DNA from: Escherichia coli
Lineage (GTDB): Bacteria; Pseudomonadota; Gammaproteobacteria; Enterobacterales; Enterobacteriaceae
Strand: one strand, 5' to 3'
Assembly: GCF_002854065.1 (NCBI RefSeq)
Contig: NZ_CP024147.1
Length of the DNA: 64,000 bases
The number at the start of each line of letters is the position of its first letter. Position 1 is the first letter of the stretch. Shown piece by piece: positions 3,355-46,484 of the stretch. Position numbers and translations under genes: made by a program. Below the pieces are notes generated by a model. That model ran no database searches and had not been told where the DNA came from. It saw only the letters and a list, made by a program, of their open reading frames with translations.

Positions 3355-3367
3355 GACGGACCATACA

Positions 3368-5333
<1,966 letters not shown>

Positions 5334-5351
5334 CCTTTGAAAGGTGGCGGG

Positions 5352-6680: not shown

Positions 6681-6689
6681 GGACGATTG

Positions 6690-13962: not shown

Positions 13963-15264
<1,302 letters not shown>

Positions 15265-15894: not shown

Positions 15895-15932
15895 CGAAAA
15901 TCTTCATCAGAGATGACAACGGAGGAACCGAG

Positions 15933-18374: not shown

Positions 18375-18432
18375 TCATTACCCTCTTCAAACAGAAGAGG
18401 GTTAGATTGCTGACAAAATGCGCTTTGTTCAT

Positions 18433-18530
18433 GCCGGATGCGGCGTGAACGCCTTATCCGGCCTACATAATCACGCAAATTCAATATATTGCAGGGATCA
18501 TGTAGACCGGATAAACGTAGTGCATCAGGC
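18433..18530. repeat. REP/BIME palindromic elements
   Basis: GCCGGATGCGGCGTGAACGCCTTATCCGGCCTAC and inverted partner TAGACCGGATAAACGTAGTGCATCAGGC. Confidence 0.8.
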
Positions 18531-18554
18531 AAAACGTAAACAACGAGTACATTA

Positions 18555-19286: not shown

Positions 19287-19299
19287 TTCCTCTGAATTA

Positions 19300-19340
19300 T
19301 GAAAAGCCATCCAGATTTGGATGGTTTTTTTTTGTCTATA
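19300..19340 (+). terminator. Rho-independent terminator after rlmB
   Basis: CCATCCAGATTTGGATGG hairpin followed by T9. Confidence 0.7.
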
Positions 19341-19412
19341 GCTGGTAAGATAATTACGTACTGCAAATATTCATTTTATTAATATTTAAACTAAATCTAT
19401 ATGGAATAATAT

Positions 19413-19814
19413 ATGACATGGAATCCGTTGGCGCTGGCGACGGCGCTGCAAACTGTACCTGAACAAAATATTGATGTAACAAATAGCGAGAACGCATTAA
19501 TTATTAAAATGAATGATTATGGCGATTTGCAAATCAATATTCTTTTTACTTCCCGCCAAATGATTATCGAAACCTTTATTTGTCCGGTAAGTAGTATCAG
19601 CAATCCAGATAAATTTAATACCTTCTTATTAAGAAATCAGAAGATGATGCCGTTGTCATCGGTAGGAATCTCCAGCGTGCAACAGGAAGAGTATTACATT
19701 GTTTTCGGGGCGTTATCGCTTAAATCTTCTCTTGAAGATATCCTGCTTGAGATAACCTCGCTGGTAGATAACGCATTGGATCTGGCTGAAATTACAGAAG
19801 AATATTCACACTAA
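19413..19814 (+). CDS. yjfI: Uncharacterised protein YjfI (DUF2170)
   Basis: 133-aa ORF; first gene of tightly spaced yjfI-yjfC cluster. Confidence 0.85.
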   Translation: MTWNPLALATALQTVPEQNIDVTNSENALIIKMNDYGDLQINILFTSRQMIIETFICPVSSISNPDKFNTFLLRNQKMMPLSSVGISSVQQEEYYIVFGALSLKSSLEDILLEITSLVDNALDLAEITEEYSH

Positions 19815-19832
19815 TTACAAGGACGGGTATTT

Positions 19833-20531
19833 ATGGGAATTTTAAAAAGTTTATTTACGCTGGGGAAATCGTTTATCTCCCAGGCGGAAGAATCCATTGA
19901 AGAAACCCAGGGTGTGCGCATGCTGGAACAGCATATTCGTGACGCTAAAGCTGAACTCGATAAAGCCGGAAAATCTCGCGTTGATCTGCTGGCGCGGGTG
20001 AAATTAAGTCACGATAAGCTGAAAGATTTACGTGAGCGCAAAGCCAGTCTGGAAGCCCGTGCGCTGGAAGCGTTAAGCAAGAACGTTAATCCGTCGCTGA
20101 TTAACGAAGTTGCTGAAGAAATCGCGCGCCTTGAGAATCTCATTACCGCTGAAGAGCAAGTGTTGTCGAATCTGGAAGTCTCCCGTGATGGCGTGGAAAA
20201 AGCAGTTACAGCGACAGCGCAGCGTATCGCTCAGTTTGAGCAGCAAATGGAAGTCGTTAAAGCCACTGAAGCCATGCAGCGTGCACAACAGGCTGTAACA
20301 ACCTCTACCGTTGGCGCATCTTCCAGCGTTTCGACAGCGGCAGAATCCTTAAAACGCCTGCAAACGCGTCAGGCAGAACGTCAGGCTCGCCTGGATGCTG
20401 CCGCACAGTTGGAGAAAGTCGCAGACGGTCGCGACCTTGACGAAAAGCTGGCGGAAGCCGGAATTGGCGGTAGCAATAAAAGTAGCGCCCAGGATGTATT
20501 AGCAAGACTGCAACGCCAACAGGGCGAGTAA
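19833..20531 (+). CDS. yjfJ: PspA/IM30-family protein YjfJ (coiled-coil, ESCRT-III-like)
   Basis: 232-aa ORF, heptad-rich; resembles PspA/Vipp1. Confidence 0.88.
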   Translation: MGILKSLFTLGKSFISQAEESIEETQGVRMLEQHIRDAKAELDKAGKSRVDLLARVKLSHDKLKDLRERKASLEARALEALSKNVNPSLINEVAEEIARLENLITAEEQVLSNLEVSRDGVEKAVTATAQRIAQFEQQMEVVKATEAMQRAQQAVTTSTVGASSSVSTAAESLKRLQTRQAERQARLDAAAQLEKVADGRDLDEKLAEAGIGGSNKSSAQDVLARLQRQQGE

Positions 20532-20581
20532 TTTTTTTGCCAGCCTCACTGCAAGGCTGGCAACTATTTTAAGGATAAAAT

Positions 20582-21241
20582 ATGTCTGGTTTTTTCCAGC
20601 GTCTGTTTGGCAAGGATAATAAGCCTGCTATCGCTCGCGGTCCGCTGGGACTTCATCTCAATAGTGGCTTTACGCTCGACACGTTAGCGTTTCGTTTGCT
20701 GGAAGATGAATTGCTGATTGCGCTGCCGGGTGAGGAATTTACGGTAGCCGCTGTCAGCCACATCGATCTGGGCGGCGGTAGTCAGATTTTCCGCTACTAC
20801 ACTTCAGGCAATGAGTTTCTGCAAATCAATACCACCGGCGGCGAAGATATTGATGATATTGATGATATCAAGCTCTTTGTCTATGAAGAGAGCTACGGTA
20901 TCAGTAAAGAGAGTCACTGGCGCGAGGCGATCAACGCCAAAACGATGGGGGCAATGACCTTAAACTGGCAGGAAAAACGCTGGCAGCGATTTTTTAACAG
21001 CGAAGAACCGGGAAATATCGAACCCGTCTACATGCTGGAAAAAGTAGAAAATCAAAATCATGCTAAATGGGAAGTCCATAATTTTACCATGGGCTACCAG
21101 CGGCAAGTGACCGAAGATACTTACGAATATTTGCTGCTAAATGGTGAGGAATCTTTTAACGATCTCGGCGAGCCAGAGTGGTTATTTTCGCGCGCGTTGG
21201 GTGTCGATATCCCGCTGACATCACTTCATATTATTGGTTAA
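20582..21241 (+). CDS. yjfK: Uncharacterised protein YjfK (DUF2491)
   Basis: 219-aa ORF in cluster. Confidence 0.85.
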   Translation: MSGFFQRLFGKDNKPAIARGPLGLHLNSGFTLDTLAFRLLEDELLIALPGEEFTVAAVSHIDLGGGSQIFRYYTSGNEFLQINTTGGEDIDDIDDIKLFVYEESYGISKESHWREAINAKTMGAMTLNWQEKRWQRFFNSEEPGNIEPVYMLEKVENQNHAKWEVHNFTMGYQRQVTEDTYEYLLLNGEESFNDLGEPEWLFSRALGVDIPLTSLHIIG

Positions 21242-21258
21242 TTACAAGGACGTTTACA

Positions 21259-21657
21259 ATGCATATACTGGATTCACTTCTTGCCTTTAGTGCCTATTTT
21301 TTTATTGGCGTGGCTATGGTGATTATTTTTCTGTTTATCTACTCCAAAATTACACCGCACAATGAATGGCAATTAATCAAAAACAATAATACCGCAGCGT
21401 CACTGGCGTTCAGCGGTACATTGTTGGGTTACGTGATCCCCTTATCCAGTGCGGCAATCAATGCGGTGAGTATTCCAGACTATTTCGCCTGGGGCGGGAT
21501 TGCACTGGTGATTCAGTTACTCGTTTTTGCTGGTGTCAGACTTTATATGCCCGCATTAAGCGAAAAAATTATTAATCACAATACCGCAGCAGGAATGTTT
21601 ATGGGAACCGCCGCGCTGGCTGGCGGTATTTTTAACGCAGCTTGTATGACATGGTAA
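21259..21657 (+). CDS. yjfL: Inner-membrane protein YjfL (DUF350)
   Basis: Track ORF 21178..21657; start at MHILDSLLAFSAYFFIGVAMVIIFLFIY; 132 aa, multiple TM segments. Confidence 0.85.
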   Translation: MHILDSLLAFSAYFFIGVAMVIIFLFIYSKITPHNEWQLIKNNNTAASLAFSGTLLGYVIPLSSAAINAVSIPDYFAWGGIALVIQLLVFAGVRLYMPALSEKIINHNTAAGMFMGTAALAGGIFNAACMTW

Positions 21658-21666
21658 TGGACGATC

Positions 21667-22305
21667 ATGGCCAGAAAACGCAAATCAAGAAATAACAGTA
21701 AAATTGGTCACGGAGCGATCAGTCGCATTGGTAGACCGAATAATCCTTTTGAACCGCGTCGCAATCGCTACGCACAAAAATACTTAACGTTGGCGCTAAT
21801 GGGCGGTGCCGCTTTTTTAATAGTCAAAGGATGGAGTGAAAGTAGCGATGTCGATAACGACGGCGACGGAACGTTTTACTCGACTGTGCAGGATTGTATT
21901 GATGACGGTAATAATGCCGACATTTGCGCGCGTGGCTGGAACAACGCCAAAGCAGCATTTTATGCCGATGTTCCGAAGAATATGACTCAGCAGAATTGTC
22001 AGTCTAAGTACGAAAATTGCTACTACGACAACGTTGAACAGAGTTGGATCCCGGTCGTTTCTGGATTTTTGTTAAGCCGGGTTATTCGTAAAGATCGCGA
22101 TGAGCAGTTTGTTTATAACAGCGGCGGTTCCTCTTTTGCTTCGCGCCCCGTCTGGCGCAACACTTCTGGTGATTACTCCTGGCGCTCCGGTTCTGGCAAA
22201 AAAGAGTCTTACTCTTCAGGCGGCTTTACCACCAGAAAAGCGTCGACCGTTTCGCGCGGCGGCTATGGTCGTTCTTCCAGCGCCCGTGGGCATTGGGGAG
22301 GCTAA
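21667..22305 (+). CDS. yjfM: Uncharacterised protein YjfM (DUF1190); Cys-rich centre, Gly/Ser/Arg-rich C-terminus
   Basis: 212-aa ORF; basic N-terminus, TM, Cys-rich segment, low-complexity tail. Confidence 0.85.
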   Translation: MARKRKSRNNSKIGHGAISRIGRPNNPFEPRRNRYAQKYLTLALMGGAAFLIVKGWSESSDVDNDGDGTFYSTVQDCIDDGNNADICARGWNNAKAAFYADVPKNMTQQNCQSKYENCYYDNVEQSWIPVVSGFLLSRVIRKDRDEQFVYNSGGSSFASRPVWRNTSGDYSWRSGSGKKESYSSGGFTTRKASTVSRGGYGRSSSARGHWGG

Positions 22306-28905: not shown

Positions 28906-30657
<1,752 letters not shown>

Positions 30658-30672
30658 TAAGGAGTTTTGATT

Positions 30673-30978
30673 ATGACCGTACGTATTCTGGCTGTGTGTG
30701 GCAACGGACAAGGCAGTTCCATGATCATGAAGATGAAAGTGGACCAGTTTTTAACCCAATCAAACATTGACCACACGGTAAACAGCTGCGCGGTTGGCGA
30801 ATACAAAAGCGAGTTGAGCGGCGCGGATATCATCATCGCTTCTACGCACATTGCGGGCGAAATCACCGTGACCGGCAACAAATACGTGGTCGGCGTGCGC
30901 AACATGCTCTCTCCTGCCGACTTTGGCCCGAAACTGCTGGAAGTGATCAAAGAGCATTTCCCGCAGGACGTGAAGTAA
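30673..30978 (+). CDS. ulaB: Ascorbate-specific PTS EIIB component UlaB
   Basis: Track ORF 30667..30978; [16 protein letters not shown] (phospho-Cys loop); 101 aa. Confidence 0.95.
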
Positions 30979-30987
30979 GGACGCGCC

Positions 30988-31451
30988 ATGAAATTACGTG
31001 ATTCGCTGGCGGAGAATAAATCCATCCGCCTGCAGGCTGAAGCAGAGACATGGCAGGACGCAGTGAAAATCGGCGTTGACCTGCTGGTGCGGCGGATGTT
31101 GTCGAGCCGCGTTACTACCAGGCGATTCTGGATGCGGTTGAACAGCACGGTCCGTACTTTGTGCTCGCACCAGGCCTGGCAATGCCGCACGGTCGCCCGG
31201 AAGAGGGCGTTAAGAAAACCGGTTTTGCGCTAGTGACGCTGAAAAAGCCGCTGGAGTTCAACCACGAAGATAATGACCCTGTGGATATCCTCATCACCAT
31301 GGCGGCGGTCGATGCCAACACGCACCAGGAAGTAGGCATCATGCAGATCGTCAACCTGTTTGAAGATGAAGAAAATTTCGACCGTTTACGTGCCTGCCGT
31401 ACCGAGCAGGAAGTACTGGATCTCATTGACCGCACCAACGCGGCAGCTTAA
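30988..31451 (+). pseudogene. ulaC: ulaC (ascorbate PTS EIIA) disrupted by a 1-nt deletion near 31089
   Basis: Track splits it into ORF 30988..31233 (correct for 34 aa [34 protein letters not shown], then out of frame) and ORF 31161..31451 (UlaC C-terminus [18 protein letters not shown]...DRTNAAA); total span 464 nt, not a multiple of 3. Confidence 0.85.
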
Positions 31452-31464
31452 GAAGGAATTGAAG

Positions 31465-32115
31465 ATGTCATTACCGATGTTGCAAGTCGCGCTGGACAAC
31501 CAGACTATGGATAGCGCCTACGAAACCACTCGCCTGATTGCCGAAGAAGTCGACATTATCGAAGTGGGCACCATTCTGTGCGTGGGCGAAGGCGTGCGTG
31601 CGGTTCGCGATCTGAAAGCGCTTTACCCGCACAAAATCGTACTCGCAGACGCCAAAATTGCCGATGCGGGCAAAATTCTTTCTCGTATGTGCTTCGAAGC
31701 CAATGCTGACTGGGTGACGGTAATTTGCTGTGCGGATATCAACACCGCCAAAGGCGCGCTGGACGTAGCAAAAGAGTTTAACGGCGACGTGCAGATTGAA
31801 CTGACCGGCTACTGGACCTGGGAACAGGCGCAGCAGTGGCGCGACGCAGGCATTCAGCAGGTGGTTTATCACCGCAGCCGTGACGCGCAGGCCGCAGGCG
31901 TGGCGTGGGGCGAAGCGGACATTACCGCGATCAAACGTCTTTCCGATATGGGCTTCAAAGTGACCGTCACTGGTGGCCTGGCGCTGGAAGATCTGCCACT
32001 GTTCAAAGGCATTCCGATTCACGTCTTTATCGCGGGCCGTAGTATCCGTGATGCCGCTTCTCCGGTGGAAGCCGCACGTCAGTTCAAACGTTCCATCGCC
32101 GAACTGTGGGGCTAA
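31465..32115 (+). CDS. ulaD: 3-keto-L-gulonate-6-phosphate decarboxylase UlaD
   Basis: Track ORF 31360..32115; start [22 protein letters not shown] with RBS AAGAAGGAATTGAAG; 216 aa. Confidence 0.95.
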
Positions 32116-32124
32116 GGAGCGGAT

Positions 32125-32979
32125 ATGTTGTCCAAACAAATCCCGCTTGGCATCTATGAAAAAGCGCTCCCCGCCGGGGAGTGCTGGCTGGAACGCCTGC
32201 AACTGGCAAAAACGTTGGGCTTCGATTTTGTCGAGATGTCGGTAGATGAAACGGACGAGCGCCTGTCGCGCCTCGACTGGAGCCGCGATCAGCGTCTGGC
32301 GCTGGTGAACGCGATTGTTGAAACCGGCGTACGCGTACCGTCAATGTGCCTTTCTGCTCATCGTCGTTTCCCGCTGGGTAGCGAAGATGACGCGGTGCGG
32401 GCGCAGGGGCTGGAGATTATGCGTAAAGCTATCCAGTTCGCTCAGGACGTCGGCATTCGCGTGATCCAGCTGGCGGGCTATGACGTTTACTATCAGGAAG
32501 CCAATAACGAAACGCGTCGTCGTTTTCGTGACGGCCTGAAAGAGAGCGTTGAGATGGCAAGCCGCGCGCAGGTGACGCTGGCGATGGAGATCATGGATTA
32601 TCCGTTGATGAACTCCATCAGCAAGGCGCTGGGCTACGCGCACTATCTCAACAATCCGTGGTTCCAGCTCTACCCGGATATCGGCAACCTGTCGGCGTGG
32701 GACAACGATGTGCAGATGGAGTTGCAGGCCGGAATCGGGCATATCGTCGCAGTACATGTGAAAGACACCAAACCTGGCGTCTTCAAAAACGTGCCGTTTG
32801 GCGAAGGTGTAGTGGATTTCGAACGTTGTTTCGAAACGCTCAAACAGAGTGGCTATTGCGGGCCGTACCTGATTGAGATGTGGAGCGAAACGGCGGAAGA
32901 CCCGGCGGCAGAAGTGGCGAAAGCGCGTGATTGGGTGAAAGCGCGCATGGCGAAAGCGGGCATGGTGGAGGCGGCATAA
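32125..32979 (+). CDS. ulaE: L-ribulose-5-phosphate 3-epimerase UlaE
   Basis: 284-aa [29 protein letters not shown]. Confidence 0.95.
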
Positions 32980-33665
32980 TGCAAAAGCTAAAACAGCAGG
33001 TATTTGAAGCCAACATGGAGCTGCCGCGCTACGGGCTGGTGACCTTTACCTGGGGCAACGTCAGCGCTATCGACCGCGAACGCGGGCTGGTGGTGATCAA
33101 GCCCAGCGGCGTTGCCTACGAAACCATGAAAGCGGCCGATATGGTGGTGGTTGATATGAGCGGCAAGGTGGTGGAAGGGGAGTATCGCCCATCTTCCGAC
33201 ACTGCGACGCATCTCGAACTCTACCGTCGTTACCCGTCGCTTGGCGGCATTGTCCATACCCACTCCACTCATGCCACCGCATGGGCGCAGGCGGGGCTGG
33301 CGATCCCGGCGTTAGGCACCACGCACGCTGACTACTTCTTTGGTGATATCCCGTGTACGCGTGGATTAAGCGAAGAAGAGGTGCAGGGTGAGTATGAACT
33401 GAACACTGGCAAAGTGATTATCGAAACGCTGGGCAACGCCGAGCCGCTGCATACGCCGGGAATTGTGGTGTATCAGCACGGACCGTTCGCCTGGGGGAAA
33501 GATGCCCACGACGCGGTGCATAACGCGGTAGTGATGGAAGAAGTGGCGAAAATGGCGTGGATTGCGCGCAGTATTAATCCACAACTCAATCACATCGACA
33601 GCTTCCTGATGAATAAACACTTCATGCGTAAGCACGGCCCTAACGCTTATTACGGGCAGAAGTAA
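32979..33665 (+). CDS. ulaF: L-ribulose-5-phosphate 4-epimerase UlaF
   Basis: Track ORF 32931..33665; start [21 protein letters not shown] overlapping ulaE stop (TAATG); 228 aa. Confidence 0.95.
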
Positions 33666-33672
33666 AACACGC

Positions 33673-33755
33673 GCTGCGGAAATTTCCTTCCTCGGGAGAT
33701 AACTGGTCTAATTCCGCAGCCGTTTTTCAAAAAAAGCCCCCTGCGAAGGGGGCAA
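33673..33755. terminator. Back-to-back terminators between convergent ulaF (+) and yjfY (-)
   Basis: Plus: GCTGCGGAAATTTCC...GGTCTAATTCCGCAGC then CGTTTTTC; minus: GCCCCCTTCGCAGGGGGC followed by T7. Confidence 0.65.
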
Positions 33756-33793
33756 AGCAAACTATGGCAATGTTTCGTTGGTTATACCTGGTG

Positions 33794-34069
33794 CTAGCGA
33801 TAAATATCCGCGCTGGCGTGCATATTGCCGTTACTCCCCGGTTCCCGCATCAGAATTACGTGGTAGTACGTTGCGCCTTGCGCATCTGTTTCTTCATTTA
33901 ATGCCTGACGTGCTTCGCTTTCAGTGGCGAAATTATGATTGATATAAATCACGCCTAAGCTTTGCACATCGTCCATATTTCTGGCCTGGTGGTTATTAAT
34001 TTCAATGGCTGCCCATGTATTTGCACTTAGCAAAAGCACAGCCAGAAGGGCTAAAACTCGACTGAACAT
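33794..34069 (-). CDS. yjfY: Periplasmic DUF1471 (YhcN family) protein YjfY
   Basis: Track ORF 33794..34138; start MFSRVLALLAVLLLSANTWAA; 91 aa. Confidence 0.85.
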   Translation of the reverse strand: MFSRVLALLAVLLLSANTWAAIEINNHQARNMDDVQSLGVIYINHNFATESEARQALNEETDAQGATYYHVILMREPGSNGNMHASADIYR

Positions 34070-34377
34070 AGATACCTCCTCGACGGCTGACTTTGTGTGC
34101 TCTCCTCTGTGATGATCTTCTGATTTAATTTTAATCAATGATAAAGAAGTTGATGGTGACCATTTCTGATGCAGTTGTTCGAAAAAACACTGTGACGGAA
34201 TGTGATGAACTTCAAATCAGCGGTTTAGAGGTTATTTGCGAAAGGGGAGATTTATTTCTGCTCCGCCCTTGAGTTTAGCGGGGTATGTCAGTACTATAAC
34301 GCGTCATTTTTCAGCCGACCTTTAACACGTTCCTTGCCTCCCCGGGATTCGGCTGACCCAGACAGGAGGCTGAATAA

Positions 34378-34791
<414 letters not shown>

Positions 34792-34797
34792 TTTCTG

Positions 34798-35344
<547 letters not shown>

Positions 35345-35373
35345 TCGGTCACGGTCCATTAATACGACTTTGA

Positions 35374-35835
<462 letters not shown>

Positions 35836-35857
35836 TTCGTTATTCAACGAGACGTAA

Positions 35858-35890
35858 AAACGCCGACCAGTGGTCGGCGTTTTGCTTTAT
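35858..35890 (+). terminator. Rho-independent terminator of rpsF-priB-rpsR-rplI operon
   Basis: CGCCGACC-AGTG-GTCGGCG hairpin followed by TTTTGCTTT. Confidence 0.8.
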
Positions 35891-35936
35891 AGCGAAAGCG
35901 TTACAACTGGTAGTATAACGCTCTGATATCTATTAA

Positions 35937-37214
35937 TTAGCTTGTCGCTAACTGTACTTGCGGTTCTTCATCTTTAACTTTGATAAGCGTCCACAGCGCA
36001 ATGGCGCCAATAATGTCAAAGAAAGCCAGGGCAATAAAGAACGGCGCGAAGCCGATAATGTGAACGAATGCCCCGATAAACAGGTTGAAAATCAACTGAC
36101 CGCTCCACGCACAGGCTCCTGCCATACCCACTGCGGTAGCTACTTCGTCTTTTTTGAACAGATCGCCACCCAGAGTTGCTGCTACAGTAGAAAGACATTG
36201 ATGCGAGAACGCGCCAATACTAATCAGTAATACGGCAATGTAGGGATTTTCGACAATACTCACCAGGCCAATCGTCATCATAATGACGGCTGCAATAGTG
36301 AAGGTAATTCTTCGTGAGTTAATTAAACTCACGCCGCGATCGTGGAAGAACTTCGCGACAAAACCACTGGCTAAACAGCCGAGATCGCCCAGCAGGAAAG
36401 GCAGCCAGACGAACATGGCAATTTCTTTCAGGCTAAAATGCAGCGTTTCGACGAAGAAAATCGGCACCCAGAAGTTAATGGTTCCCCATGCCGGGTCTGC
36501 GAGAAAACGCGCGATGCCAATCCCCCAGAAATTACGTTGGCTGAGGATATGCTTGATTGACGTTTTTTCTTTCTTATCTGTTTTAAGATGCTGTTCTTGC
36601 CCTGATTCAATATAGTGGCGCTCTTCATCAGAAAGGCGTTTGGCATCTTTCGGATCTTTATAACAAAAGAACCAAAATAAAGCCGCGAGCAAAGCAAGGC
36701 TACCTGAAACAATAAACGCAAATTGCCAGCTATGAAACATAATGCACCAGGCAATCAACGGTGGAGCAAGCATCGCGCCGAGTGAGGTGCCCATATTGAA
36801 AACACCTGTCGCCACGCCACGCTCTTTTGCCGGGAACCATGTTGATGCGGTTTTTACACCCGCCGGAATTGCCGACGCTTCGCTGAAACCCATCAGGGCG
36901 CGCATAAATGCCAGACCTGACCACGTTCCGGTTAGTGCATGGCCCATTGTCGCCAGGCCCCAAATTGCGGCACATATCGCAAAACTTAACTTCAGACCCA
37001 CGGTATCAATAAAGAAGCCCATTACCGGTTGCCCTAATGTATAGGCCAACTGGAATGCACTGACAATCCATGAATATTGCTCTTTAGTTATTCCGGTTGT
37101 CTCCATAATCGTTGGAGCCGCAATACCTAACGCCGTTCTGTCCAGATAATTGATTACAGTGATAAAGCATACGAGGGCAATCATATGCCACCGGTAATTC
37201 GGTAATGACTCCAA
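35937..37214 (-). CDS. MFS transporter, anion:cation symporter (ACS) family, ExuT/GudP-like; 5' end abuts IS1 (track start codon TTG lies inside the IS1 terminus; first native in-frame ATG gives MIALVCF...)
   Basis: 425-aa ORF with ~12 predicted TM segments and ACS-family sequence character (resemblance to ExuT from memory); not at this position in K-12 as I recall. Confidence 0.75.
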   Translation of the reverse strand: MESLPNYRWHMIALVCFITVINYLDRTALGIAAPTIMETTGITKEQYSWIVSAFQLAYTLGQPVMGFFIDTVGLKLSFAICAAIWGLATMGHALTGTWSGLAFMRALMGFSEASAIPAGVKTASTWFPAKERGVATGVFNMGTSLGAMLAPPLIAWCIMFHSWQFAFIVSGSLALLAALFWFFCYKDPKDAKRLSDEERHYIESGQEQHLKTDKKEKTSIKHILSQRNFWGIGIARFLADPAWGTINFWVPIFFVETLHFSLKEIAMFVWLPFLLGDLGCLASGFVAKFFHDRGVSLINSRRITFTIAAVIMMTIGLVSIVENPYIAVLLISIGAFSHQCLSTVAATLGGDLFKKDEVATAVGMAGACAWSGQLIFNLFIGAFVHIIGFAPFFIALAFFDIIGAIALWTLIKVKDEEPQVQLATS

Positions 37215-37215
37215 C

Positions 37216-37719
37216 TTATTGATAGTGTTTTATGTTCAGATAATGCCCGATGACTTTGTCATGCAGCTCCACCGATTTTGAGAACGACAGCGACTTCCGT
37301 CCCAGCCGTGCCAGGTGCTGCCTCAGATTCAGGTTATGCCGCTCAATTCGCTGCGTATATCGCTTGCTGATTACGTGCAGCTTTCCCTTCAGGCGGGATT
37401 CATACAGCGGCCAGCCATCCGTCATCCATATCACCACGTCAAAGGGTGACAGCAGGCTCATAAGACGCCCCAGCGTCGCCATAGTGCGTTCACCGAATAC
37501 GTGCGCAACAACCGTCTTCCGGAGCCTGTCATACGCGTAAAACAGCCAGCGCTGGCGCGATTTAGCCCCGACGTATCCCCACTGTTCGTCCATTTCCGCG
37601 CAGACGATGACGTCACTGCCCGGCTGTATGCGCGAGGTTACCGACTGCGGCCTGAGTTTTTTAAATGGCGGAAAATCGTGTTGAGGCCAACGCCCATAAT
37701 GCGGGCGGTTGCCCGGCAT
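37216..37719 (-). CDS. insB: IS1 transposase InsB (expressed as InsAB' by -1 frameshift)
   Basis: 167-aa [61 protein letters not shown]. Confidence 0.95.
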
Positions 37720-37913
37720 CCAACGCCATTCATGGCCATATCAATGATTTTCTGGTGCGTACCGGGTTGAGAAGCGGTGTAAGTGAACTGCAGTTGCCAT
37801 GTTTTACGGCAGTGAGAGCAGAGATAGCGCTGATGTCCGGCAGTGCTTTTGCCGTTACGCACCACCCCGTCAGTAGCTGAACAGGAGGGACAGCTGATAG
37901 AAACAGAAGCCAC
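37638..37913 (-). CDS. insA: IS1 protein InsA (transposition inhibitor / N-terminal part of transposase)
   Basis: 91-aa [94 protein letters not shown]. Confidence 0.95.
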
Positions 37914-37971
37914 TGGAGCACCTCAAAAACACCATCATACACTAAATCAGTAAGTTGGCAGCATCACCCAT

Positions 37972-38610
37972 CTACTGCGCACGAATAAAACTGCCATCCG
38001 GCTGGCGGGTAAACAGGACCTGTTGATTATTCCCCGTATCAATAGTTAAGCCCGTCACCACGCCGCTGGCGTTCTGGCGGATTTTCACCATCTGCCCGTT
38101 TTGCAAATTACTCAGCGGCTTACCCGCGCCTTCTACCTGCGCCATTGCATAGACATCGGTAGCGGGCAGTCCGTGGTCGCGGAACAGCTGCGCCATCGTT
38201 TTACCGGGTTCGACACGGTAAGAGCGCCATTGATTATCAATTCCGCTATCTGGCTGGAATGGTTGTGTTTGGGTAGTTTGCGGCTGTTCTTCTGGCTGGC
38301 CTTCCTGTATAGGTTCTGGAGCGACCGGAGCCACCTGATCAGGATCATTTTGTGGTGTGACTAATTGCGCCCGCAGCTGTTCTTCTGTCGGCGGTTGTGA
38401 TTGCGACTGAATATCTAACTGCGCTTCACGCGTCACCACCGGCGCGTTGGGCGTATCATCAGATGGAAGCAGAAATCCGACCACCAATATAATGGCGGCA
38501 ATAATGATCCCCCGACGATGCATCGGCGGCAGCGGGTCCATGAAGCGAAAATTGTCCGGCGCGTGCCAGACTTTCTCCAGGGTTGGTTTTAGTTCAAAGC
38601 GCCCGGGCAT
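37972..38610 (-). CDS. ytfB: Cell-division protein YtfB (OapA / LysM-like domain)
   Basis: Track ORF 37972..38646; start MPGRFELKPTLEKVWHAPDNFRFMD; Pro/Gln-rich linker; stop codon 3 nt from IS1 end. Confidence 0.9.
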   Translation of the reverse strand: MPGRFELKPTLEKVWHAPDNFRFMDPLPPMHRRGIIIAAIILVVGFLLPSDDTPNAPVVTREAQLDIQSQSQPPTEEQLRAQLVTPQNDPDQVAPVAPEPIQEGQPEEQPQTTQTQPFQPDSGIDNQWRSYRVEPGKTMAQLFRDHGLPATDVYAMAQVEGAGKPLSNLQNGQMVKIRQNASGVVTGLTIDTGNNQQVLFTRQPDGSFIRAQ

Positions 38611-38828
38611 GGTTTCCTCCTGCTCCGCGTCTTGTTCCTCAATCATAGCCTATGAATAAGCTAACGCTATGATGTCCGTGGTAAACCCGCCTTTATTATA
38701 TTCATACGGGATATTGCTATTGTTTCTTTTTCCCCGGGATTTGTCATCATTCCTGCGACAAAGTTTTACCCAAAGAAGTGTGGCTGATATGCTGCCCGCT
38801 ACTTTTATACCCTAAGAAAGGAAATACG

Positions 38829-39449
38829 ATGACCACCCCAACTTTTGACACCATCGAAGCGCAAGCAAGCTACGGCATTGGTTTACAGGTAGGCCAACAA
38901 CTGAGTGAATCTGGCCTGCAAGGGCTGCTGCCGGAGGCGCTGGTGGCTGGTATTGCAGATGCGCTGGAAGGCAAACATCCGGCTGTTCCGGTTGATGTGG
39001 TGCATCGCGCGCTGCGTGAAATCCACGAACGCGCCGATGCCGTTCGTCGTCAGCGTTTCCAGGCGATGGCTGCCGAAGGTGTGAAATATCTTGAAGAAAA
39101 TGCCAAAAAAGAAGGTGTGAACAGCACCGAATCTGGCCTGCAATTCCGCGTGATCAACCAGGGTGAAGGCGCAATTCCGGCACGTACTGACCGCGTTCGT
39201 GTTCATTACACCGGTAAACTGATCGACGGCACCGTGTTTGACAGCTCCGTTGCTCGTGGTGAACCCGCTGAATTCCCGGTTAATGGCGTGATCCCTGGCT
39301 GGATTGAAGCACTGACTCTGATGCCGGTAGGTTCTAAATGGGAACTGACTATCCCGCAGGAACTGGCCTATGGCGAGCGCGGCGCTGGCGCATCCATCCC
39401 TCCGTTCAGCACCCTGGTGTTTGAAGTCGAGCTGCTGGAAATCCTCTAA
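38829..39449 (+). CDS. fklB: FKBP-type peptidyl-prolyl cis-trans isomerase FklB
   Basis: Track ORF 38778..39449; start [22 protein letters not shown]; 206 aa. Confidence 0.95.
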
Positions 39450-39750
39450 GCAGCGTATTCTGTTCCCCTCGAGCCAGAGGGGAGCAGGCATTTAGCAATA
39501 AACCCTTCAGTTTGCCAATCGGCGATATTTTGTGTTGCAAACGCTCCGTAAGCGTGTATTTTTGTGAGCTGTTTCGCGTTATCACCGTGATATGACACTC
39601 ACTTTAAACATAAAATTAACATTAGATCTAAATCTTAGTATTCATCCCACGTATTGTTTCCTAATATCGATGAGTCCCGATACAGATTCGTCGTATTATA
39701 GACTGACTAAAGGCCGCAGAGCCTGAACAACACAGACAGGAAGAAAAAAC

Positions 39751-41163
39751 ATGGTAGATCAGGTAAAAGTCGTTGCCGATGATCAGGCTCCGGCTGAACA
39801 GTCGCTACGGCGCAATCTCACAAACCGGCATATTCAGCTTATTGCCATTGGCGGCGCCATTGGTACGGGGTTGTTTATGGGATCCGGTAAAACAATCAGC
39901 CTTGCCGGGCCGTCGATCATTTTCGTTTATATGATCATCGGTTTTATGCTCTTTTTCGTGATGCGGGCAATGGGGGAATTGCTGCTTTCGAATCTGGAAT
40001 ACAAATCTTTTAGTGACTTCGCTTCCGATTTATTAGGGCCGTGGGCAGGATATTTCACTGGCTGGACTTATTGGTTCTGCTGGGTGGTTACCGGTATGGC
40101 GGACGTGGTTGCCATCACGGCTTATGCGCAGTTCTGGTTTCCGGGGCTATCTGACTGGGTCGCCTCGTTGGCGGTGATAGTGCTGTTGCTGACCCTGAAC
40201 CTCGCCACCGTGAAAATGTTCGGTGAGATGGAGTTCTGGTTTGCGATGATCAAAATCGTCGCCATCGTGTCGTTGATTGTCGTCGGCCTGGTCATGGTGG
40301 CGATGCACTTTCAGTCACCGACTGGTGTGGAAGCGTCATTTGCGCATTTGTGGAATGACGGCGGCTGGTTCCCGAAAGGCTTAAGTGGCTTCTTTGCCGG
40401 ATTCCAGATAGCGGTTTTCGCTTTCGTGGGGATTGAGCTGGTAGGTACTACTGCTGCGGAAACCAAAGATCCAGAGAAATCACTGCCGCGTGCAATTAAC
40501 TCTATTCCGATCCGCATCATTATGTTCTACGTCTTCGCGCTGATTGTGATTATGTCCGTGACGCCGTGGAGTTCGGTAGTCCCGGATAAAAGCCCGTTTG
40601 TTGAACTGTTCGTGTTGGTGGGGCTGCCTGCTGCTGCCAGCGTGATCAACTTTGTGGTGCTGACGTCTGCGGCTTCTTCCGCTAACAGTGGCGTCTTCTC
40701 TACCAGTCGCATGCTGTTTGGTCTGGCGCAGGAAGGTGTTGCACCGAAAGCGTTCGCTAAACTCTCTAAACGCGCAGTACCCGCGAAAGGGCTGACCTTC
40801 TCTTGTATCTGTCTGCTCGGCGGCGTGGTGATGTTGTACGTGAATCCAAGCGTGATTGGCGCGTTCACGATGATCACGACGGTTTCCGCGATTCTGTTTA
40901 TGTTTGTCTGGACGATTATCCTTTGCTCATACCTTGTGTATCGCAAACAGCGTCCGCACCTGCATGAGAAGTCAATCTACAAGATGCCGCTCGGCAAGCT
41001 GATGTGCTGGGTATGTATGGCGTTCTTTGTGTTCGTCATCGTGCTGCTGACGCTGGAAGATGACACCCGCCAGGCTCTGCTGGTTACCCCACTGTGGTTT
41101 ATCGCGCTGGGGCTGGGCTGGTTGTTTATTGGTAAGAAGCGGGCTGCTGAACTGCGGAAATAA
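39751..41163 (+). CDS. cycA: D-serine/D-alanine/glycine:H+ symporter CycA (APC family)
   Basis: 470-aa ORF MVDQVKVVADDQAPAEQSLRRNLTNRHIQLIAIGGAIGTGLF. Confidence 0.96.
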   Translation: MVDQVKVVADDQAPAEQSLRRNLTNRHIQLIAIGGAIGTGLFMGSGKTISLAGPSIIFVYMIIGFMLFFVMRAMGELLLSNLEYKSFSDFASDLLGPWAGYFTGWTYWFCWVVTGMADVVAITAYAQFWFPGLSDWVASLAVIVLLLTLNLATVKMFGEMEFWFAMIKIVAIVSLIVVGLVMVAMHFQSPTGVEASFAHLWNDGGWFPKGLSGFFAGFQIAVFAFVGIELVGTTAAETKDPEKSLPRAINSIPIRIIMFYVFALIVIMSVTPWSSVVPDKSPFVELFVLVGLPAAASVINFVVLTSAASSANSGVFSTSRMLFGLAQEGVAPKAFAKLSKRAVPAKGLTFSCICLLGGVVMLYVNPSVIGAFTMITTVSAILFMFVWTIILCSYLVYRKQRPHLHEKSIYKMPLGKLMCWVCMAFFVFVIVLLTLEDDTRQALLVTPLWFIALGLGWLFIGKKRAAELRK

Positions 41164-41207
41164 CCGCATTATCATGCTGGATGGCGCAATGCCATCCAGC
41201 TTTTAGA

Positions 41208-41870
41208 TTACTCACCCGCCAGCGCGCGTGGGAACAGTACATTGTTTTCCAGACTGATGTGATCCATCAGGTCATCAATCAGTTCATTAATGCCGTTATA
41301 CATCGCTTTCCAGGTGGTGCAGGCTTCTGGCGGCGGTGTGACGTTATTGGTAGTGTGTTTGATCACTTCCAGCAGTTCGCCCGCTTCATCGTGCTCGCTT
41401 TCCATTACGCTGATTGGCCCCATTGCCTGGCTGCCCATGCCTTGTTTGATCATCGGGAAGAGGATCTGCTCTTCTTTCATCATGTGGCTGGAAAGCTCTT
41501 CATGCAGCATGGTCAGGTATTTTGTCAGCCCTTTTGGCACGCTCGGTTTGTCGGCGTGAACGCGCTCGACTTTAGTCGCTTGCAGGATCAGCTCCGGCAG
41601 TTGCTCGCGGTGACGATCGTGGTAGCGCACGATGATATGGTCGATGATTTCTGCCAGCGGGGCGCTACGCCAGTCTTTCTCAATCGGTTGTTCAGCAAGC
41701 TTTGCCAGCTCAGCTTCAATGACCTCAACATCCAGTTCTTTACGTGCCGCCGCACGCGCCAGCGTTTGCTTACCGCCGCAGCAGTAATCCATATCATATT
41801 TACGAAACAGAGCCGAAGCGCGAGGGATAGAGAGCGCCAGTTCACCTAAAGGTTGGTCGCGATAAGCCAT
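41208..41870 (-). CDS. ytfE: Iron-sulfur cluster repair di-iron protein YtfE (RIC)
   Basis: 220-aa [36 protein letters not shown]; hemerythrin-like. Confidence 0.95.
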
Positions 41871-41977
41871 AGCTGATACCTCATTCTTAATAAGATAAGA
41901 TGTATTTTAAATGCATCTTTAAGGCAAATGCTATAACCCTTACGTAGCAGAGGCTTATTTAACTCACTGCCAGTATG

Positions 41978-42952
41978 TCAACTTTCTGAGACAGATTCAG
42001 TTAAAGGCTTTTCCGGTTTTGCTCTGACTGCAATGACCACGCCAACCACTAACAGCGCGATACCGCTCAGCGTCATCAGCGGCGGCATTTGCTGGCGTAT
42101 CAAAAAGGTGTACAGCAAACCTGCCAGTGTTTCGAAAACGATCAGCGGCCCGAGAATCACTGTCGGTAATCGCTGGCTGGCGACGTTCCAGCAGAGTGCG
42201 CCAACCCATGAGCAAAGCACGGCTATCGCAACCATCAGACTAATAAACACCAGCGGACGGGGGCCAAAAGGTAAGGAGAAGTCCGGCGTTTGTATATTCA
42301 GCCAGTAACAGGCGACGAGATAGCCGATGAGAGAAACCGGCAGCGTGACCAGCGCCTGCGCCGTCGCCCACATCATCGGATGTTTGTCGGGATTTTCCCG
42401 CAGCCAGCGGGCGTTGCGCAGGGCATACCATGCCCAGCAGACCACGGAAACTAACGCTAGCACGATGCCAGAGGTATAACGTGCCCAGTCAAAATCGGGG
42501 AGTCCGTGGTTTAACTCAGCAATATTCACACACGCCAGGCCGATGCCAATACAAATCAGTGCCGGGGCGAGTTTTCCCCACGCGAGTTTGCCGTCTCGCT
42601 GGCTATAAAGCAGATTGGCAAAGACAGGAATGACCACCGGCAGGGTGCCAATAATCATCGTAGAAACAGGCGCGCCAGTACGTTGAATGGCACTGGCAAG
42701 GCAGAAGTAATAGATGAGGTTGCCCATCATAGTGAGCATCAAGGCGGTAAGCCAGTCGCGACGCGCCAACTGACGCAGACGCACGCGTCCCAGCCAGGCA
42801 ATGGGTAGCGCAATTAACCCTAACGCCAGATAACGCCCCATCGACTGCAACATCGCCGGGTATTCCGGCACGATCAACGGCCCGACAAAAATAAGCCCCC
42901 ACATCAACCCTGCTAACAGGGCGTACAGCACGCCGCTAATCATTACTGGCAT
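41978..42952 (-). CDS. ytfF: Inner-membrane DMT/EamA-family transporter YtfF
   Basis: 324-aa track ORF, 10 TM; start codon choice (MPVMISG vs MISG) uncertain. Confidence 0.88.
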   Translation of the reverse strand: MPVMISGVLYALLAGLMWGLIFVGPLIVPEYPAMLQSMGRYLALGLIALPIAWLGRVRLRQLARRDWLTALMLTMMGNLIYYFCLASAIQRTGAPVSTMIIGTLPVVIPVFANLLYSQRDGKLAWGKLAPALICIGIGLACVNIAELNHGLPDFDWARYTSGIVLALVSVVCWAWYALRNARWLRENPDKHPMMWATAQALVTLPVSLIGYLVACYWLNIQTPDFSLPFGPRPLVFISLMVAIAVLCSWVGALCWNVASQRLPTVILGPLIVFETLAGLLYTFLIRQQMPPLMTLSGIALLVVGVVIAVRAKPEKPLTESVSES

Positions 42953-43051
42953 CCATTGGTCTGTCAGAAGAAACGTTCAGGAAGCAGACATGATTGCTCC
43001 CGGCATCCCGTCATTATCAGAGAGGATGCGGGAGGATGCCACTTTAATTAA

Positions 43052-43915
43052 CTATTTATTAACATTAAAAAGATGGCTTACGCTTTCGGCTAACGTTGTC
43101 GTTGGGCGGCCAATCAATTTGCTCAGCGTTTTGCTGTCATCAAACAGACCGCCTTTCGATGCGCCAACGTCAGAATCCGCCAGCATATCCGCCAGTCCGT
43201 CAGGCAGGCCAACGCTTTTCAGCGCCGCAGCGAAATCGATTTCGCTCAGATTTTGATAGGTAACCTGTTTGCCGCTCTGTTTGGTCAGCTCTGCCGCTAA
43301 CTGTGTCAACGTCCAGGCACTATCGCCCGCCAGCTCGTAAACCTTGCCTTCGTGACCGGCTTCGCTAATCACGCGTGCCGCAGCTGCCGCATAATCTGCC
43401 CGCGTTGCCGAGGCAATTTTGCCATCGCCCGCGGCACCGATAAATACGCCGTGCTCCAGTGCTGCCGGGGCGCTGGCGAGATAGTTTTCGGTGTACCAGC
43501 CGTTGCGCAGCAGGGTGTAAACGATGCCAGAATCAGCCAACATTTTCTCCGTCTCGATGTGCTCATCGGCGAGGCCGAGCGGAGATTTATCCGCGTGAAG
43601 CAGACTGGTATAAGCGATAAATTTCACGCCAGCCGTCTTTGCGGCATTAATAACATTACGATGCTGCGGGGCACGTTGACCCACTTCGCTGGAAGAGATC
43701 AGCAGTAGTTTTTCCACTCCCTGAAGTGCAGATGTCAGTGCGGCTTCATCGCCGTAGTCAGCCTGACGCACGGTAATGCCTTGTGCTGCCAGGGCCTGGG
43801 CTTTTGCCGGATTACGAACGATAGCCACTATTTGTTGGCTGGCAGGAACCGTTTTCATCAAGGATTCAATAACATAGTGACCAAGTTGGCCAGTGGCACC
43901 AGTAATAGCGATCAT
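43052..43915 (-). CDS. qorB: NAD(P)H:quinone oxidoreductase QorB (YtfG), NmrA-like
   Basis: 287-aa ORF MIAITGATGQLGHYVIESL (Rossmann GxxGxxG). Confidence 0.93.
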   Translation of the reverse strand: MIAITGATGQLGHYVIESLMKTVPASQQIVAIVRNPAKAQALAAQGITVRQADYGDEAALTSALQGVEKLLLISSSEVGQRAPQHRNVINAAKTAGVKFIAYTSLLHADKSPLGLADEHIETEKMLADSGIVYTLLRNGWYTENYLASAPAALEHGVFIGAAGDGKIASATRADYAAAAARVISEAGHEGKVYELAGDSAWTLTQLAAELTKQSGKQVTYQNLSEIDFAAALKSVGLPDGLADMLADSDVGASKGGLFDDSKTLSKLIGRPTTTLAESVSHLFNVNK

Positions 43916-44003
43916 GGGAAGTCTCCATCGTTTTGTCTTGTGTTTAAATACGCTAACACCTAAACTTACTTTTAGTAAGTACGTACAAAAAGGTAAGTAT
44001 GAA

Positions 44004-44384
44004 ATGAGTCAGGTTAGCCTGTCGCAACAACTGAAAGAGGGTAATCTCTTTGCGGAACAGTGCCCGTCGCGCGAGGTGTTGAAACACGTCACCAGCCGTT
44101 GGGGGGTATTGATTCTGGTGGCGCTACGCGAAGGTACTCATCGCTTTAGCGACCTGCGGCGCAAAATCGGTGGGGTGAGTGAAAAGATGCTTGCGCAGTC
44201 GTTACAGGCGTTAGAACAGGATGGTTTTCTTAACCGTATCGCGTATCCGGTGGTGCCGCCGCATGTGGAATACAGCCTCACGCCGCTGGGCGAGCAGGTG
44301 AGCGAAAAGGTTGCTGCACTGGCGGACTGGATTGAGTTGAATTTGCCCGAGGTGTTGGCGGTGCGGGATGAACGTGCGGCATAA
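44004..44384 (+). CDS. ytfH: HxlR-family transcriptional regulator YtfH
   Basis: Track ORF 43893..44384; start MSQVSLSQQLKEGNLFAEQCPSREVLKHVTSRWGVLIL; 126 aa; divergent from qorB. Confidence 0.9.
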   Translation: MSQVSLSQQLKEGNLFAEQCPSREVLKHVTSRWGVLILVALREGTHRFSDLRRKIGGVSEKMLAQSLQALEQDGFLNRIAYPVVPPHVEYSLTPLGEQVSEKVAALADWIELNLPEVLAVRDERAA

Positions 44385-44385
44385 C

Positions 44386-44485
44386 TGCCGGATGCGCTGA
44401 GCTTATCTGGTCTACGGTGCATGGCTTGTAGGGCGGATAAGATGCGCCAGCATCGCATCCGACAAAAGTGCCGGATGCGGTTGAT
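44386..44485. repeat. REP/BIME palindromic elements
   Basis: CTGCCGGATGCGCTGAGCTTATCTGG..GTAGGGCGGATAAGATGCGCCAGCATCGCATCCGACA..GTGCCGGATGCGG. Confidence 0.8.
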
Positions 44486-44511
44486 GATTTATAGGTCGAA
44501 AAAGAAGTGTT

Positions 44512-46484
44512 TTACTTACTCAAATCCACCTGATAAATCGCAAACCCGATATCATCGGTCGCGACTTTATTCATCGGATATTGCCCTTTCTCTTTAATAA
44601 ACGCTGCGGCTTTATCTGACGGGGAAGTTTCGAAACGGATATCCAGTTTCTTATCGCCGGCTATCGGTGCTAAACGCCAGTTGTTATCTGCCGCCGGGTG
44701 AATTTCCCCCGCACGTTTCGACTCATCAGCAATCCACGCTGCCAGCACCGAGCGGTTCTCATCCGGTGAAGCAAAAGCGATATGGCTGTCGCCCGTACCG
44801 GCAAATTTGCCGCCGTAAGCGCGATAGTTATTGGTGGCAACGAGGAACATGGCGTTCGGATCAATCGGCTTGCCGTTAAAGGTCAGGTTCTTAATCCTTT
44901 CCGCATTGGCATTAACCATCTGGCACTCGCCGTCATAACGGGCAGGCTGGGTAACATCAATCTGATAATTCACACCATCAATCACATCAAAGTTATAGGT
45001 GCGGAAACCATCCCAGTTGATGAGTGACTGTGGTTTCGTGTTGTCAGGATCAATCTGGTTAAACTGTCCGGCGGAGCACTCCAGCCACTCTTTCACCTCT
45101 TTACCGCTGGCTTTCACCACAATCAGCGTATTGGGGTAGAGATAAAGATCGGCGGCATTACGGAAGGTCAACTGGCCTTTTTCCACCTCCACATAGCTTG
45201 CCGGATCATTTTTGCGACCACCAACTTTAAACGGTGCAGCAGCTGAAAGCACCGGCAGTTTTGCCAGATCCGGATCGTCCTGAATGTAATGCTCGACATA
45301 CGCTTTTTGCGCGTTGTTCACCACCTGCACGGTCGGATCGTCCTGCACCAGCGCCAGATAGCTATACATATTGTCGGCGGATTTACCGATTGGCTTGCTG
45401 ACGAACTGGCGTGTGGCATCGTGATCGGCTTTGAGTGTTTCTACCAGCTTGCTGTCTTCCGCCGCGAGGGATTTTTTATTGGCGATGTCGTAAATCGGCC
45501 GTGCTTCCGCTTTCGCCTGCGTCACCTGCCATTTACCGCTGTTATTACTGAGTTGTAAGTCGACCACCCCAAGATGATCGCCCCACATGCCCGGCATTAC
45601 CGCCGGAACACCATTCAGCGTGCCTTTCGCGATATCAGCCCCTTCGATACGATATCAGCCCCTTCGATATCAGCAAAATCTTTACCTGGGAAAACGGCGT
45701 GAGCATGGCCAAACATAATGGCGTTAACGCCAGGAATTTCACTGAGGTAATAAACTGAGTTTTCCGCCATCACTTTATACGGATCGGCAGATAGCCCGGA
45801 ATGCGCCAGAACGACAACGACATCGGCACCTTTCTCGCGCATTTCAGGCACGTATTTGCGCACGGTTTCGGTAATATCATTCACCGTCACTTTTCCGGAT
45901 AAATTAGCTTTATCCCAGCCCATGATTTGCGGCGGCACGACGCCAATATAGCCAATCTTCAGCGTCTGTTTTTTTCCGTCTTTATCGACCACTTCGGTAT
46001 CTTTAATTAAATACGGTGTAAACATTGGCTGTTTGGTTCTGGCGTCAATGACGTTGGCATTTACATAAGGGAATTTCGCTCCCGCCAACGCATTTTTCAG
46101 GTAATCCAGACCGTAGTTAAATTCATGATTGCCGAGTGTACCGACCGTATAATCCAGCGTATTCAGCGCCTTATAAACCGGATGAACATCACCTGCTTTT
46201 AATCCTTTCGCCGATATGTAATCGGCCAGCGGACTCCCCTGAATCAAATCGCCGTTATCGACCAGTACGCTGTTTTTCACTTCATTGCGGGCATCGTTAA
46301 TCAGGCTTGCCGTACGTACCAGTCCGAATTTTTCCGTGGCGGTGTCTTTGTAATAATCGAAATCCATCATGTTGCTATGCAGATCAGTGGTTTCCATGAT
46401 ACGTAGATCGACCGTCGCTGCATTCACACTGGCGGCAATCAGCGTGGCCAGGAGCGTTGCGCTAAACTTAATCATCAGGGACAT
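44512..46484 (-). pseudogene. cpdB: cpdB (periplasmic 2',3'-cyclic-nucleotide 2'-phosphodiesterase / 3'-nucleotidase) split by a 20-bp tandem duplication
   Basis: N-terminal ORF 45615..46484 (signal peptide [36 protein letters not shown], ends ...[19 protein letters not shown]) and C-terminal ORF 44512..45597 ([15 protein letters not shown]...) are adjacent and co-directional; removing one 20-bp copy rejoins them in frame. Confidence 0.85.
45630..45669. repeat. Perfect 20-bp tandem duplication CGATATCAGCCCCTTCGATA x2 inside cpdB
   Basis: Read directly: 45630-45649 and 45650-45669 identical. Confidence 0.9.

Follow-up and report, generated by a model that had tools for sequence, protein, structure and literature searches.

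A complete IS1 lacking a target duplication marks a 6,996-bp IS1-associated deletion between rplI and ytfB in Escherichia coli

IS1-promoted adjacent deletions are said to have been described in the gal region by Reif and Saedler in 1975, and intramolecular replicative transposition was reportedly analyzed by Turlan and Chandler in 1995. In the classical adjacent deletions the insertion sequence is kept, the deletion starts exactly at its terminus, no target duplication remains and the end-points are nested from a fixed IS end. The locus reported here, located between rplI and ytfB in a 64,000-nucleotide stretch of E. coli DNA (the window), displays the same properties, the nested end-points being provided by the related strains C21 and PSS-10, but differs in that the event is deduced from natural isolates, whereas the classical deletions were selected in the laboratory. 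A second parallel is found in the IS150-mediated rbs deletions of the Lenski lines and the events termed 'IS-del' (PMC11708052), where a dispensable operon is likewise lost recurrently and independently through IS-bounded deletions with end-points that vary by lineage and with no duplications. These deletions involve another IS family in a single laboratory clone, whereas the IS1 locus concerns natural populations and involves several IS1 variants (93-100% identical to the window copy) and several anchor sites, rather than one pre-existing copy. Both the element and the process described below are part of known IS1 biology and entail no new mechanism or element; the one mildly notable point is the frequency with which a single island has been eroded, independently, by different IS1 copies.

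The element at positions 37201-37968 of the window (minus strand) is a complete IS1 of the IS1B isoform, 768 bp in length and identical at 768 of 768 positions (100%) to the copy annotated by RefSeq as 'IS1-like element IS1B', with a 'programmed frameshift' IS1B transposase, in the cpdB gene of strain CUWW06. The IS1 copy of strain TUM17543 is also 100% identical to it. The transposase genes occupy the minus strand, with the right end (IRR) toward a transporter gene and the left end (IRL) toward ytfB. Both terminal inverted repeats are intact through their final base: IRR (37201-37223) starts GGTAATGACTCC / GGTAATGACTCCAAC and IRL (37946-37968) ends GGCAGCATCACC / GTTGGCAGCATCACC, and their alignment (GGTAATGACTCCAACTTATTGAT versus GGTGATGCTGCCAACTTACTGAT) matches at 18 of 23 positions. 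Two open reading frames, insA (37638-37913, minus strand, 91 codons) and insB' (37216-37719, minus strand, 167 codons), match NCBIfam model NF033558 (IS1 family transposase) at positions 1-81 (90 bits) and 76-199 (143.8 bits, cut-off 100), respectively, and together span the model end to end. The A6C motif (AAAAAAC, GTTTTTT on the plus strand) for the programmed -1 frameshift from insA to insB' occurs once, at 37656-37662 (minus strand), or IS1 position 307 counted from IRL. Length, imperfect inverted repeats of about 23 bp beginning GGT, the insA/insB' arrangement with its A6C frameshift and the match to the curated model all place the element in the IS1 family, and the two ends, the 768 bp and the intact frames bear out an earlier, sequence-only reading of this DNA, which had claimed a complete IS1 at this position. 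No second IS1 or other long repeat was detected within the 64-kb window.

The window copy differs from a usual IS1 in being devoid of the 8-9-bp target duplication that constitutes the footprint of simple insertion. The nine bases to its left (CGGTAATTC, 37192-37200) and right (CATCTACTG, 37969-37977) match no better than by chance (3 of 9 positions), and the 20 nt on the left and the 20 nt on the right of the element have no k-mer of 4 bases or longer in common, so that a shifted or 8/10-bp duplication is excluded as well. The flanks and the missing duplication had been read in the same way from the sequence alone. As a positive control, eight simple IS1 insertions in related loci (five in or beside the island described below, three in cpdB) all present 8-9-bp duplications, and every deletion-bridging IS1 examined lacks one. 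The absent duplication hence reflects the history of the window copy and is not a property of the element.

That history is revealed by comparison with CUWW06, a wastewater isolate from Thailand. In separate searches of the two 20-kb flanks against 5,426 complete E. coli genomes, CUWW06 was the sole genome returning 100.0% identity on both sides, corresponding to ~99.97% on both sides by base-level comparison. Window positions 30177-37200 align to positions 1-7025 of the CUWW06 locus (L008, the coordinate reference used hereafter) with one mismatch and one indel, and positions 37969-46124 align to 14022-22177 with five mismatches. Between these two junctions CUWW06 carries 6,996 bp of uninterrupted, IS1-free sequence. 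It comprises the first 14 nt of an MFS transporter gene (ATGAATAAAATAAA, minus strand); a 92-bp spacer; genes for an FAD-binding oxidoreductase, an acyl-CoA:acetate/3-ketoacid CoA-transferase, an enoyl-CoA hydratase, a sugar-phosphate isomerase/epimerase and a 3-ketoacyl-ACP reductase, in that order; and a divergently transcribed TetR gene, minus its last 20 nt, whose 3' end overlaps ytfB. The left junction 9-mer, CGGTAATTC, runs in CUWW06 directly into TTTATTTTATTCAT, the start of the MFS gene, and the right junction 9-mer, CATCTACTG, lies within the last 20 nt of the TetR gene. Compared base by base at the breakpoints, the window is CUWW06 with 6,996 bp swapped precisely for one complete IS1: both ends of the retained element are complete, and the missing DNA borders exactly on its terminus. 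The window IS1 is thus the scar of an ordinary IS1-associated 6,996-bp deletion, and it is because of this deletion that the target duplication is missing. An empty-site relative carrying the intervening DNA supports the initial proposal that either an adjacent deletion or IS1 x IS1 recombination gave rise to the copy.

The deletion has left truncated genes on both sides of the element. The MFS transporter gene (anion:cation symporter-type, TIGR00893 match), downstream of rplI at 35937-37200 on the minus strand, is without its first 14 nt, in agreement with the prior suggestion that IS1 replaces the first transporter codons. Relative to the intact 1,278-nt genes at loci L001 and L008, it has lost its ATG, its ribosome-binding region and the whole upstream operon. 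Fourteen nucleotides of IS1 supply an open frame that begins with a TTG at 37214, one base past the insB' stop, and generates a hybrid N-terminus in which LESLPNYRWHM replaces MNKIKNYRWHM; this open frame running through IS1 into the transporter remnant is a coincidence that arose by chance. On the opposite side, the TetR/AcrR regulator gene (the equivalent of K-12 ytfA) is reduced to its final 20 nt, at 37969-37988 on the plus strand, window position 37969 corresponding to L008 14022 in a TetR coding sequence spanning L008 13394-14041. The neighboring ytfB gene (37972-38610, minus strand; annotated by RefSeq at L008 14025-14663) is intact, and its TAG stop codon (37972-37974) is separated from the IRL end by 3 nt, a gap that the sequence-only reading had correctly pointed out.

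The same reading had referred to the K-12 arrangement and regarded yjfZ and ytfA as the genes absent at the IS1 position. The layout it gave is right, since K-12 MG1655 presents rplI-yjfZ-ytfA(pseudogene)-ytfB, but yjfZ and ytfA are not what IS1 removed, as CUWW06 shows the loss to be that of a 7-kb island. K-12 can be ruled out as the ancestral state: CUWW06 holds this different 7-kb island, and K-12 ytfA is a remnant of its TetR gene, consisting of the last 403 nt of that gene with a 102-nt scrap of the reductase gene just upstream. K-12 is an older deletion derivative of the island, resembling the window in chromosomal position and in the location of the right deletion end within the TetR gene, but differing in that its breakpoint, common to ~2,300 of the 5,426 genomes, carries no IS1. 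Of the 5,426 complete E. coli genomes, 3,111 (57%) have 80% or more of the deleted segment, and most other genomes harbor only the K-12-type 383-nt remnant, with one common breakpoint and often interrupted by IS609. The layout of strain J-8 (rplI-yjfZ-MFS-island) indicates that yjfZ and the island can coexist. In the clone of the window yjfZ is absent with or without IS1, and the window lineage never had yjfZ at the rplI-ytfB position.

To place the window allele among other IS1 events, 20 related loci were mapped onto CUWW06 coordinates. Simple insertions were located at L008 6965 (JNEC-KY203, copy 1), 6997 (UTI89 and 16 other genomes) and 7012 (J-8) in the MFS 5' region, at 7165 in the spacer (RCAD0514 type), at 7266 in the oxidoreductase 3' end (2017.01.04CC) and at 13963 in TetR (UID2309220015, L017), together with three insertions in cpdB, all different. 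These simple insertions, in or beside the island and in cpdB, carry 8-9-bp duplications. Besides the window copy, at least 14 IS1 elements span different deletions at the locus; they have 13 different left and 14 different right junctions, C21 and PSS-10 having the left one in common, and none has a duplication. They include those of 2017.17.03CC (L008 6976 left, 13833 right), C21 (L004) and four others (6851, 13860), PSS-10 (L005; 6851, 13922), AF39 (6578, 13961) and copy 2 of JNEC-KY203 (L007; 7165, 13967), and to these the window allele adds 7025 on the left and 14022 on the right. The remaining ones are those of 23AR1101 (7072, 11682), EH08-18-36 (11297, 13884), AZ186 (12164, 13984) and TUM17543 (13150, 13566), as well as those of M171-1, KH_005, LR-45, TBE6 and AR_0369, which extend from a TRAP-transporter variant of the island into TetR. 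The involvement of several IS1 variants, 93-100% identical to the window copy, shows the events to be independent. All mapped deletions stop short of ytfB, and that of the window is the largest possible on the ytfB side. The idea that TetR serves as a universal anchor, so that every right end would lie in it while the left ends vary, is downgraded because the searches saw only IS1 copies within ~580 bp of the query flanks; furthermore, the 23AR1101 deletion is anchored on the MFS side and ends in the isomerase gene, leaving TetR intact.

IS1 has an established preference for AT-rich targets. In 200-nt segments, two AT-rich patches stand out against an island GC content of ~0.50: L008 6900-7300 (GC 0.32-0.36), comprising the MFS 5' end and the spacer, and L008 13300-13900 (GC 0.35-0.41), comprising the TetR gene and the intergenic region between it and the reductase gene. 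Most IS1 junctions, including both window junctions, fall in or at the edge of these patches, and end-points outside them do occur, as in the 23AR1101 allele. Mean local GC at junction sites is 0.434 versus 0.503, with 0.0004 of random samples as low, a statistic inflated by ascertainment; the clustering itself is inflated in the same manner, as the searches were centered on the patches and detect only IS1 within ~580 bp of the query flanks. With these limits, junction placement fits the target preference of IS1.

The window allele was not detected outside this strain. Queries of 160 nt across each junction yielded no single-piece match in the 5,426 complete E. coli genomes, all full-coverage matches consisting of two pieces with IS1 at another nearby position, and exact 30-31-mers across the junctions were absent from metagenome contigs and species-representative genomes. 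The presence of these junctions in none of the collections indicates that the event is private to the window strain. Likewise, no progenitor with IS1 and a duplication at either window junction was found in the 5,426 genomes, the metagenome contigs or the species representatives, and no progenitor with two directly repeated IS1 at the window junctions, each with its own duplication, was found in the 5,426 genomes. The widespread RCAD0514-type IS1B, located in the MFS/oxidoreductase spacer with duplication AAAATTCT, was considered as a direct progenitor and rejected: it would need deletions from both of its ends, its sequence differs from the window IS1 at two positions, and the nearest relative is without that copy. 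Separately, the right flank of the window diverges from RCAD0514 by 2.6%, starting past window position 39400 in the cycA region, and this divergence is unrelated to IS1.

Since CUWW06 lacks IS1 at either junction, a simple insertion followed by an adjacent deletion requires two events, compared with three for recombination between two IS1 copies. Parsimony, too, thus speaks for the two-step route, which we favor as the most likely origin of the window allele (probability of roughly 0.6). An IS1B from the active pool of the clone would first have entered one AT-rich patch by simple insertion, creating a 9-bp duplication; candidate locations are the MFS 5' end/spacer and the 3' part of TetR. 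Transposase would then have linked the far terminus of the element to a target within the second patch, on the same chromosome. Such intramolecular replicative transposition, the classical 'adjacent deletion', would discard the intervening DNA and one copy of the duplication, while keeping IS1 with both ends intact. The activity of IS1B in this clone is attested by the cpdB gene of CUWW06, where an identical IS1 lies in the same orientation with the 9-bp duplication GTTAAATTC, at a site that is empty in the window (46116-46124). With the cpdB copy present in CUWW06 only and the island copy in the window only, IS1B has been moving in both sister lineages since their split. For the proposed second step, the same locus offers a direct natural example: over 9.5 kb that take in the IS1 and the left junction, C21 and PSS-10 differ in nothing but a segment of 62 bp, missing in PSS-10, that directly adjoins the IRL end. 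This pair is a natural textbook case of nested adjacent deletion.

The final structure of the window is the same as, and indistinguishable from, the product of recombination between two directly repeated IS1, which argues against the two-step route being the only reading. RecA-dependent recombination would in this case have acted on two independent same-orientation insertions, the first into target CGGTAATTC at the 5' end of the MFS gene and the second into target CATCTACTG, 3 nt away from the ytfB stop codon, excising the island and leaving a single IS1 flanked by one half of each duplication. Simple insertions are frequent in both patches (6965, 6997, 7012, 7165 and 7266, and 13963 in TetR), the IS1 copies of the clone are identical in sequence and hence good recombination substrates, and JNEC-KY203 harbors two directly repeated IS1 copies 212 bp apart, a state from which recombination would yield a duplication-free single copy of the same kind. 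We nevertheless consider this origin rather unlikely, as the three events would all have to postdate the split from CUWW06, whose island is IS1-free; neither postulated insertion was found in any of the 5,426 genomes, the metagenome contigs or the species representatives; and C21 and PSS-10 show that transposase-type, end-anchored deletion works at this locus without a second copy.

The same two postulated insertions would be needed if the structure were an artefact, with an island lying between two IS1 copies that the assembler collapsed into one. Collapse across identical 768-bp repeats would give exactly the junction pair of the window, but its normal outcome is a broken contig and not the loss of 7 kb of unique sequence. 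The two insertions appear in none of the 5,426 complete E. coli genomes, and eight complete genomes from independent projects present an MFS remnant-IS1-TetR remnant-ytfB structure, each with its own junctions, which makes this kind of structure biologically common and an assembly artefact very improbable.

The lack of IS1 at either junction in the nearest relative is also compatible with insertion and deletion in a single step, in which IS1 would have entered a chromosome break or its ends would have integrated non-concertedly 7 kb apart. Such a one-step origin has been proposed for some IS5 and IS481 events (PMC11708052), a paper that documents such events for other IS families. It would accord with two further observations: near the ytfB end 13 of the 14 IS1-bearing genomes have a deletion, a simple insertion being present only in UID2309220015, and no examined deletion-bridging IS1 has a junction in common with a simple insertion that matches it in variant and orientation. 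IS1 is not known to use a one-step mechanism, though, and the LTEE data class all deletions of such kind as ordinary adjacent deletions (PMC11708052). Moreover, the ~9 substitutions per 30 kb separating the window from CUWW06, plus a second IS1 event in cpdB, represent ample time for two steps, and the passage from C21 to PSS-10 proves that stepwise, end-anchored deletion takes place at the locus. It is therefore improbable that IS1 was introduced into a break or by non-concerted integration, and there is similarly only a slim chance that the window allele, and perhaps many of the at least 14 other duplication-free copies, arose in one step with no pre-existing IS1 at the end-points. Were this the case, the rplI-ytfB island would be a natural hot spot for testing the 'IS at centre of deletion' pathway (PMC11708052) for IS1.

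By whichever route, we infer that five enzyme genes and the TetR regulator gene are gone from the window strain. The MFS gene, the last of the minus-strand operon, would be without its native start and promoter, and at best transcribed by read-through from IS1; ytfB is intact, with a transcript that would now enter IS1 at IRL. Scans for promoters and terminators around the junctions, as well as at the ends of the deleted segment in CUWW06, yielded site numbers that did not exceed those of shuffled sequence, and the possibilities of new outward promoters and of a lost ytfB terminator were dropped, as nothing exceeded chance. For annotation purposes, the transporter ORF beside IS1 should be regarded as a decapitated remnant, and the operon of five enzyme genes and its TetR gene as missing; the junction pair provides a unique marker of the window strain. 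In a wider view, the loss of this dispensable island, in whole or in part and on many separate occasions, to different IS1 variants illustrates clearly how IS1 drives reductive evolution in nature. The enoyl-CoA hydratase gene is already a pseudogene in CUWW06, suggesting that the island was decaying and that its loss was neutral.

The interval between rplI and ytfB is organized differently across the compared genomes. J-8 (L018, 752-3064) carries yjfZ together with the genes of the island that is present in CUWW06, the nearest relative of the window, in the order rplI-yjfZ-MFS-IS1-oxidoreductase and onwards. The presence of yjfZ and the island side by side in this strain establishes that the locus has at least four layouts, comprising yjfZ plus island, the MFS island alone, a TRAP-transporter island and the K-12 remnant. 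The last of these derives from the same gene set: in K-12 (L003 4588-5096 against CUWW06, L008 12991-14041), the ytfA pseudogene is what is left of the TetR gene, its last 403 nt, with 102 nt of the ketoacyl-reductase gene remaining upstream of it. The K-12-type breakpoint is common to approximately 2,300 of the 5,426 genomes, many of which harbor IS609 (TnpA and InsQ/TnpB) inside the remnant. Within the TRAP-type island of TBE6 (L013 1333-3268), ISKpn26, a member of the IS5 family, adjoins the deletion-bridging IS1, indicating that families other than IS1 also build up at the locus.

IS1 junctions recur at several points of the locus. The target position immediately following TTTAAAAATTCT is occupied by IS1 in both RCAD0514 (L001, 21542) and JNEC-KY203 (L007, 5319), in opposite orientations and by different variants (99.7% and 94.9% identical, respectively, to the window's IS1); only one of these copies bridges a deletion, the other being a simple insertion. 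The MFS/oxidoreductase spacer thus looks like an insertion hot spot for IS1. At the 3' end of the TetR gene, three independent IS1 right junctions were located in UID2309220015 (L017, 3269), the related locus L006 (4723) and JNEC-KY203 (6087), lying 67, 61 and 55 nt from the equivalent of window position 37969, the first base on the ytfB side of the window's IS1, in steps of exactly 6 nt.

Farther to the right, the reading frame of cpdB (window 44512-46484) is broken, leaving one ORF of 361 codons and another of 289. In the relatives RCAD0514, 2017.17.03CC and CUWW06, cpdB is annotated as frameshifted, and it is therefore a pseudogene that the window's lineage has in common. Three genomes carry IS1 at three distinct sites in cpdB, each with a 9-bp duplication (CUWW06, L008 22178-22945; L009 17491-18258; L010 17990-18757). 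The CUWW06 copy and the IS1 of the window share 100% identity, and the empty site of the CUWW06 copy, GTTAAATTC, is present in the window at 46116-46124.

The right flank of the window matches RCAD0514 and 2017.17.03CC at ~99.9% identity up to ~39400 and at ~97% beyond, in the cycA region; identity to CUWW06 is ~99.9% all along, including beyond ~39400. This position marks the boundary of a recombination block, bearing no relation to the window's IS1. The sole long direct repeat detected in the window stems from three tandem tRNA-Gly(GCC) genes (1647-1945), spaced 111-112 nt apart in a glyVXY-type cluster.
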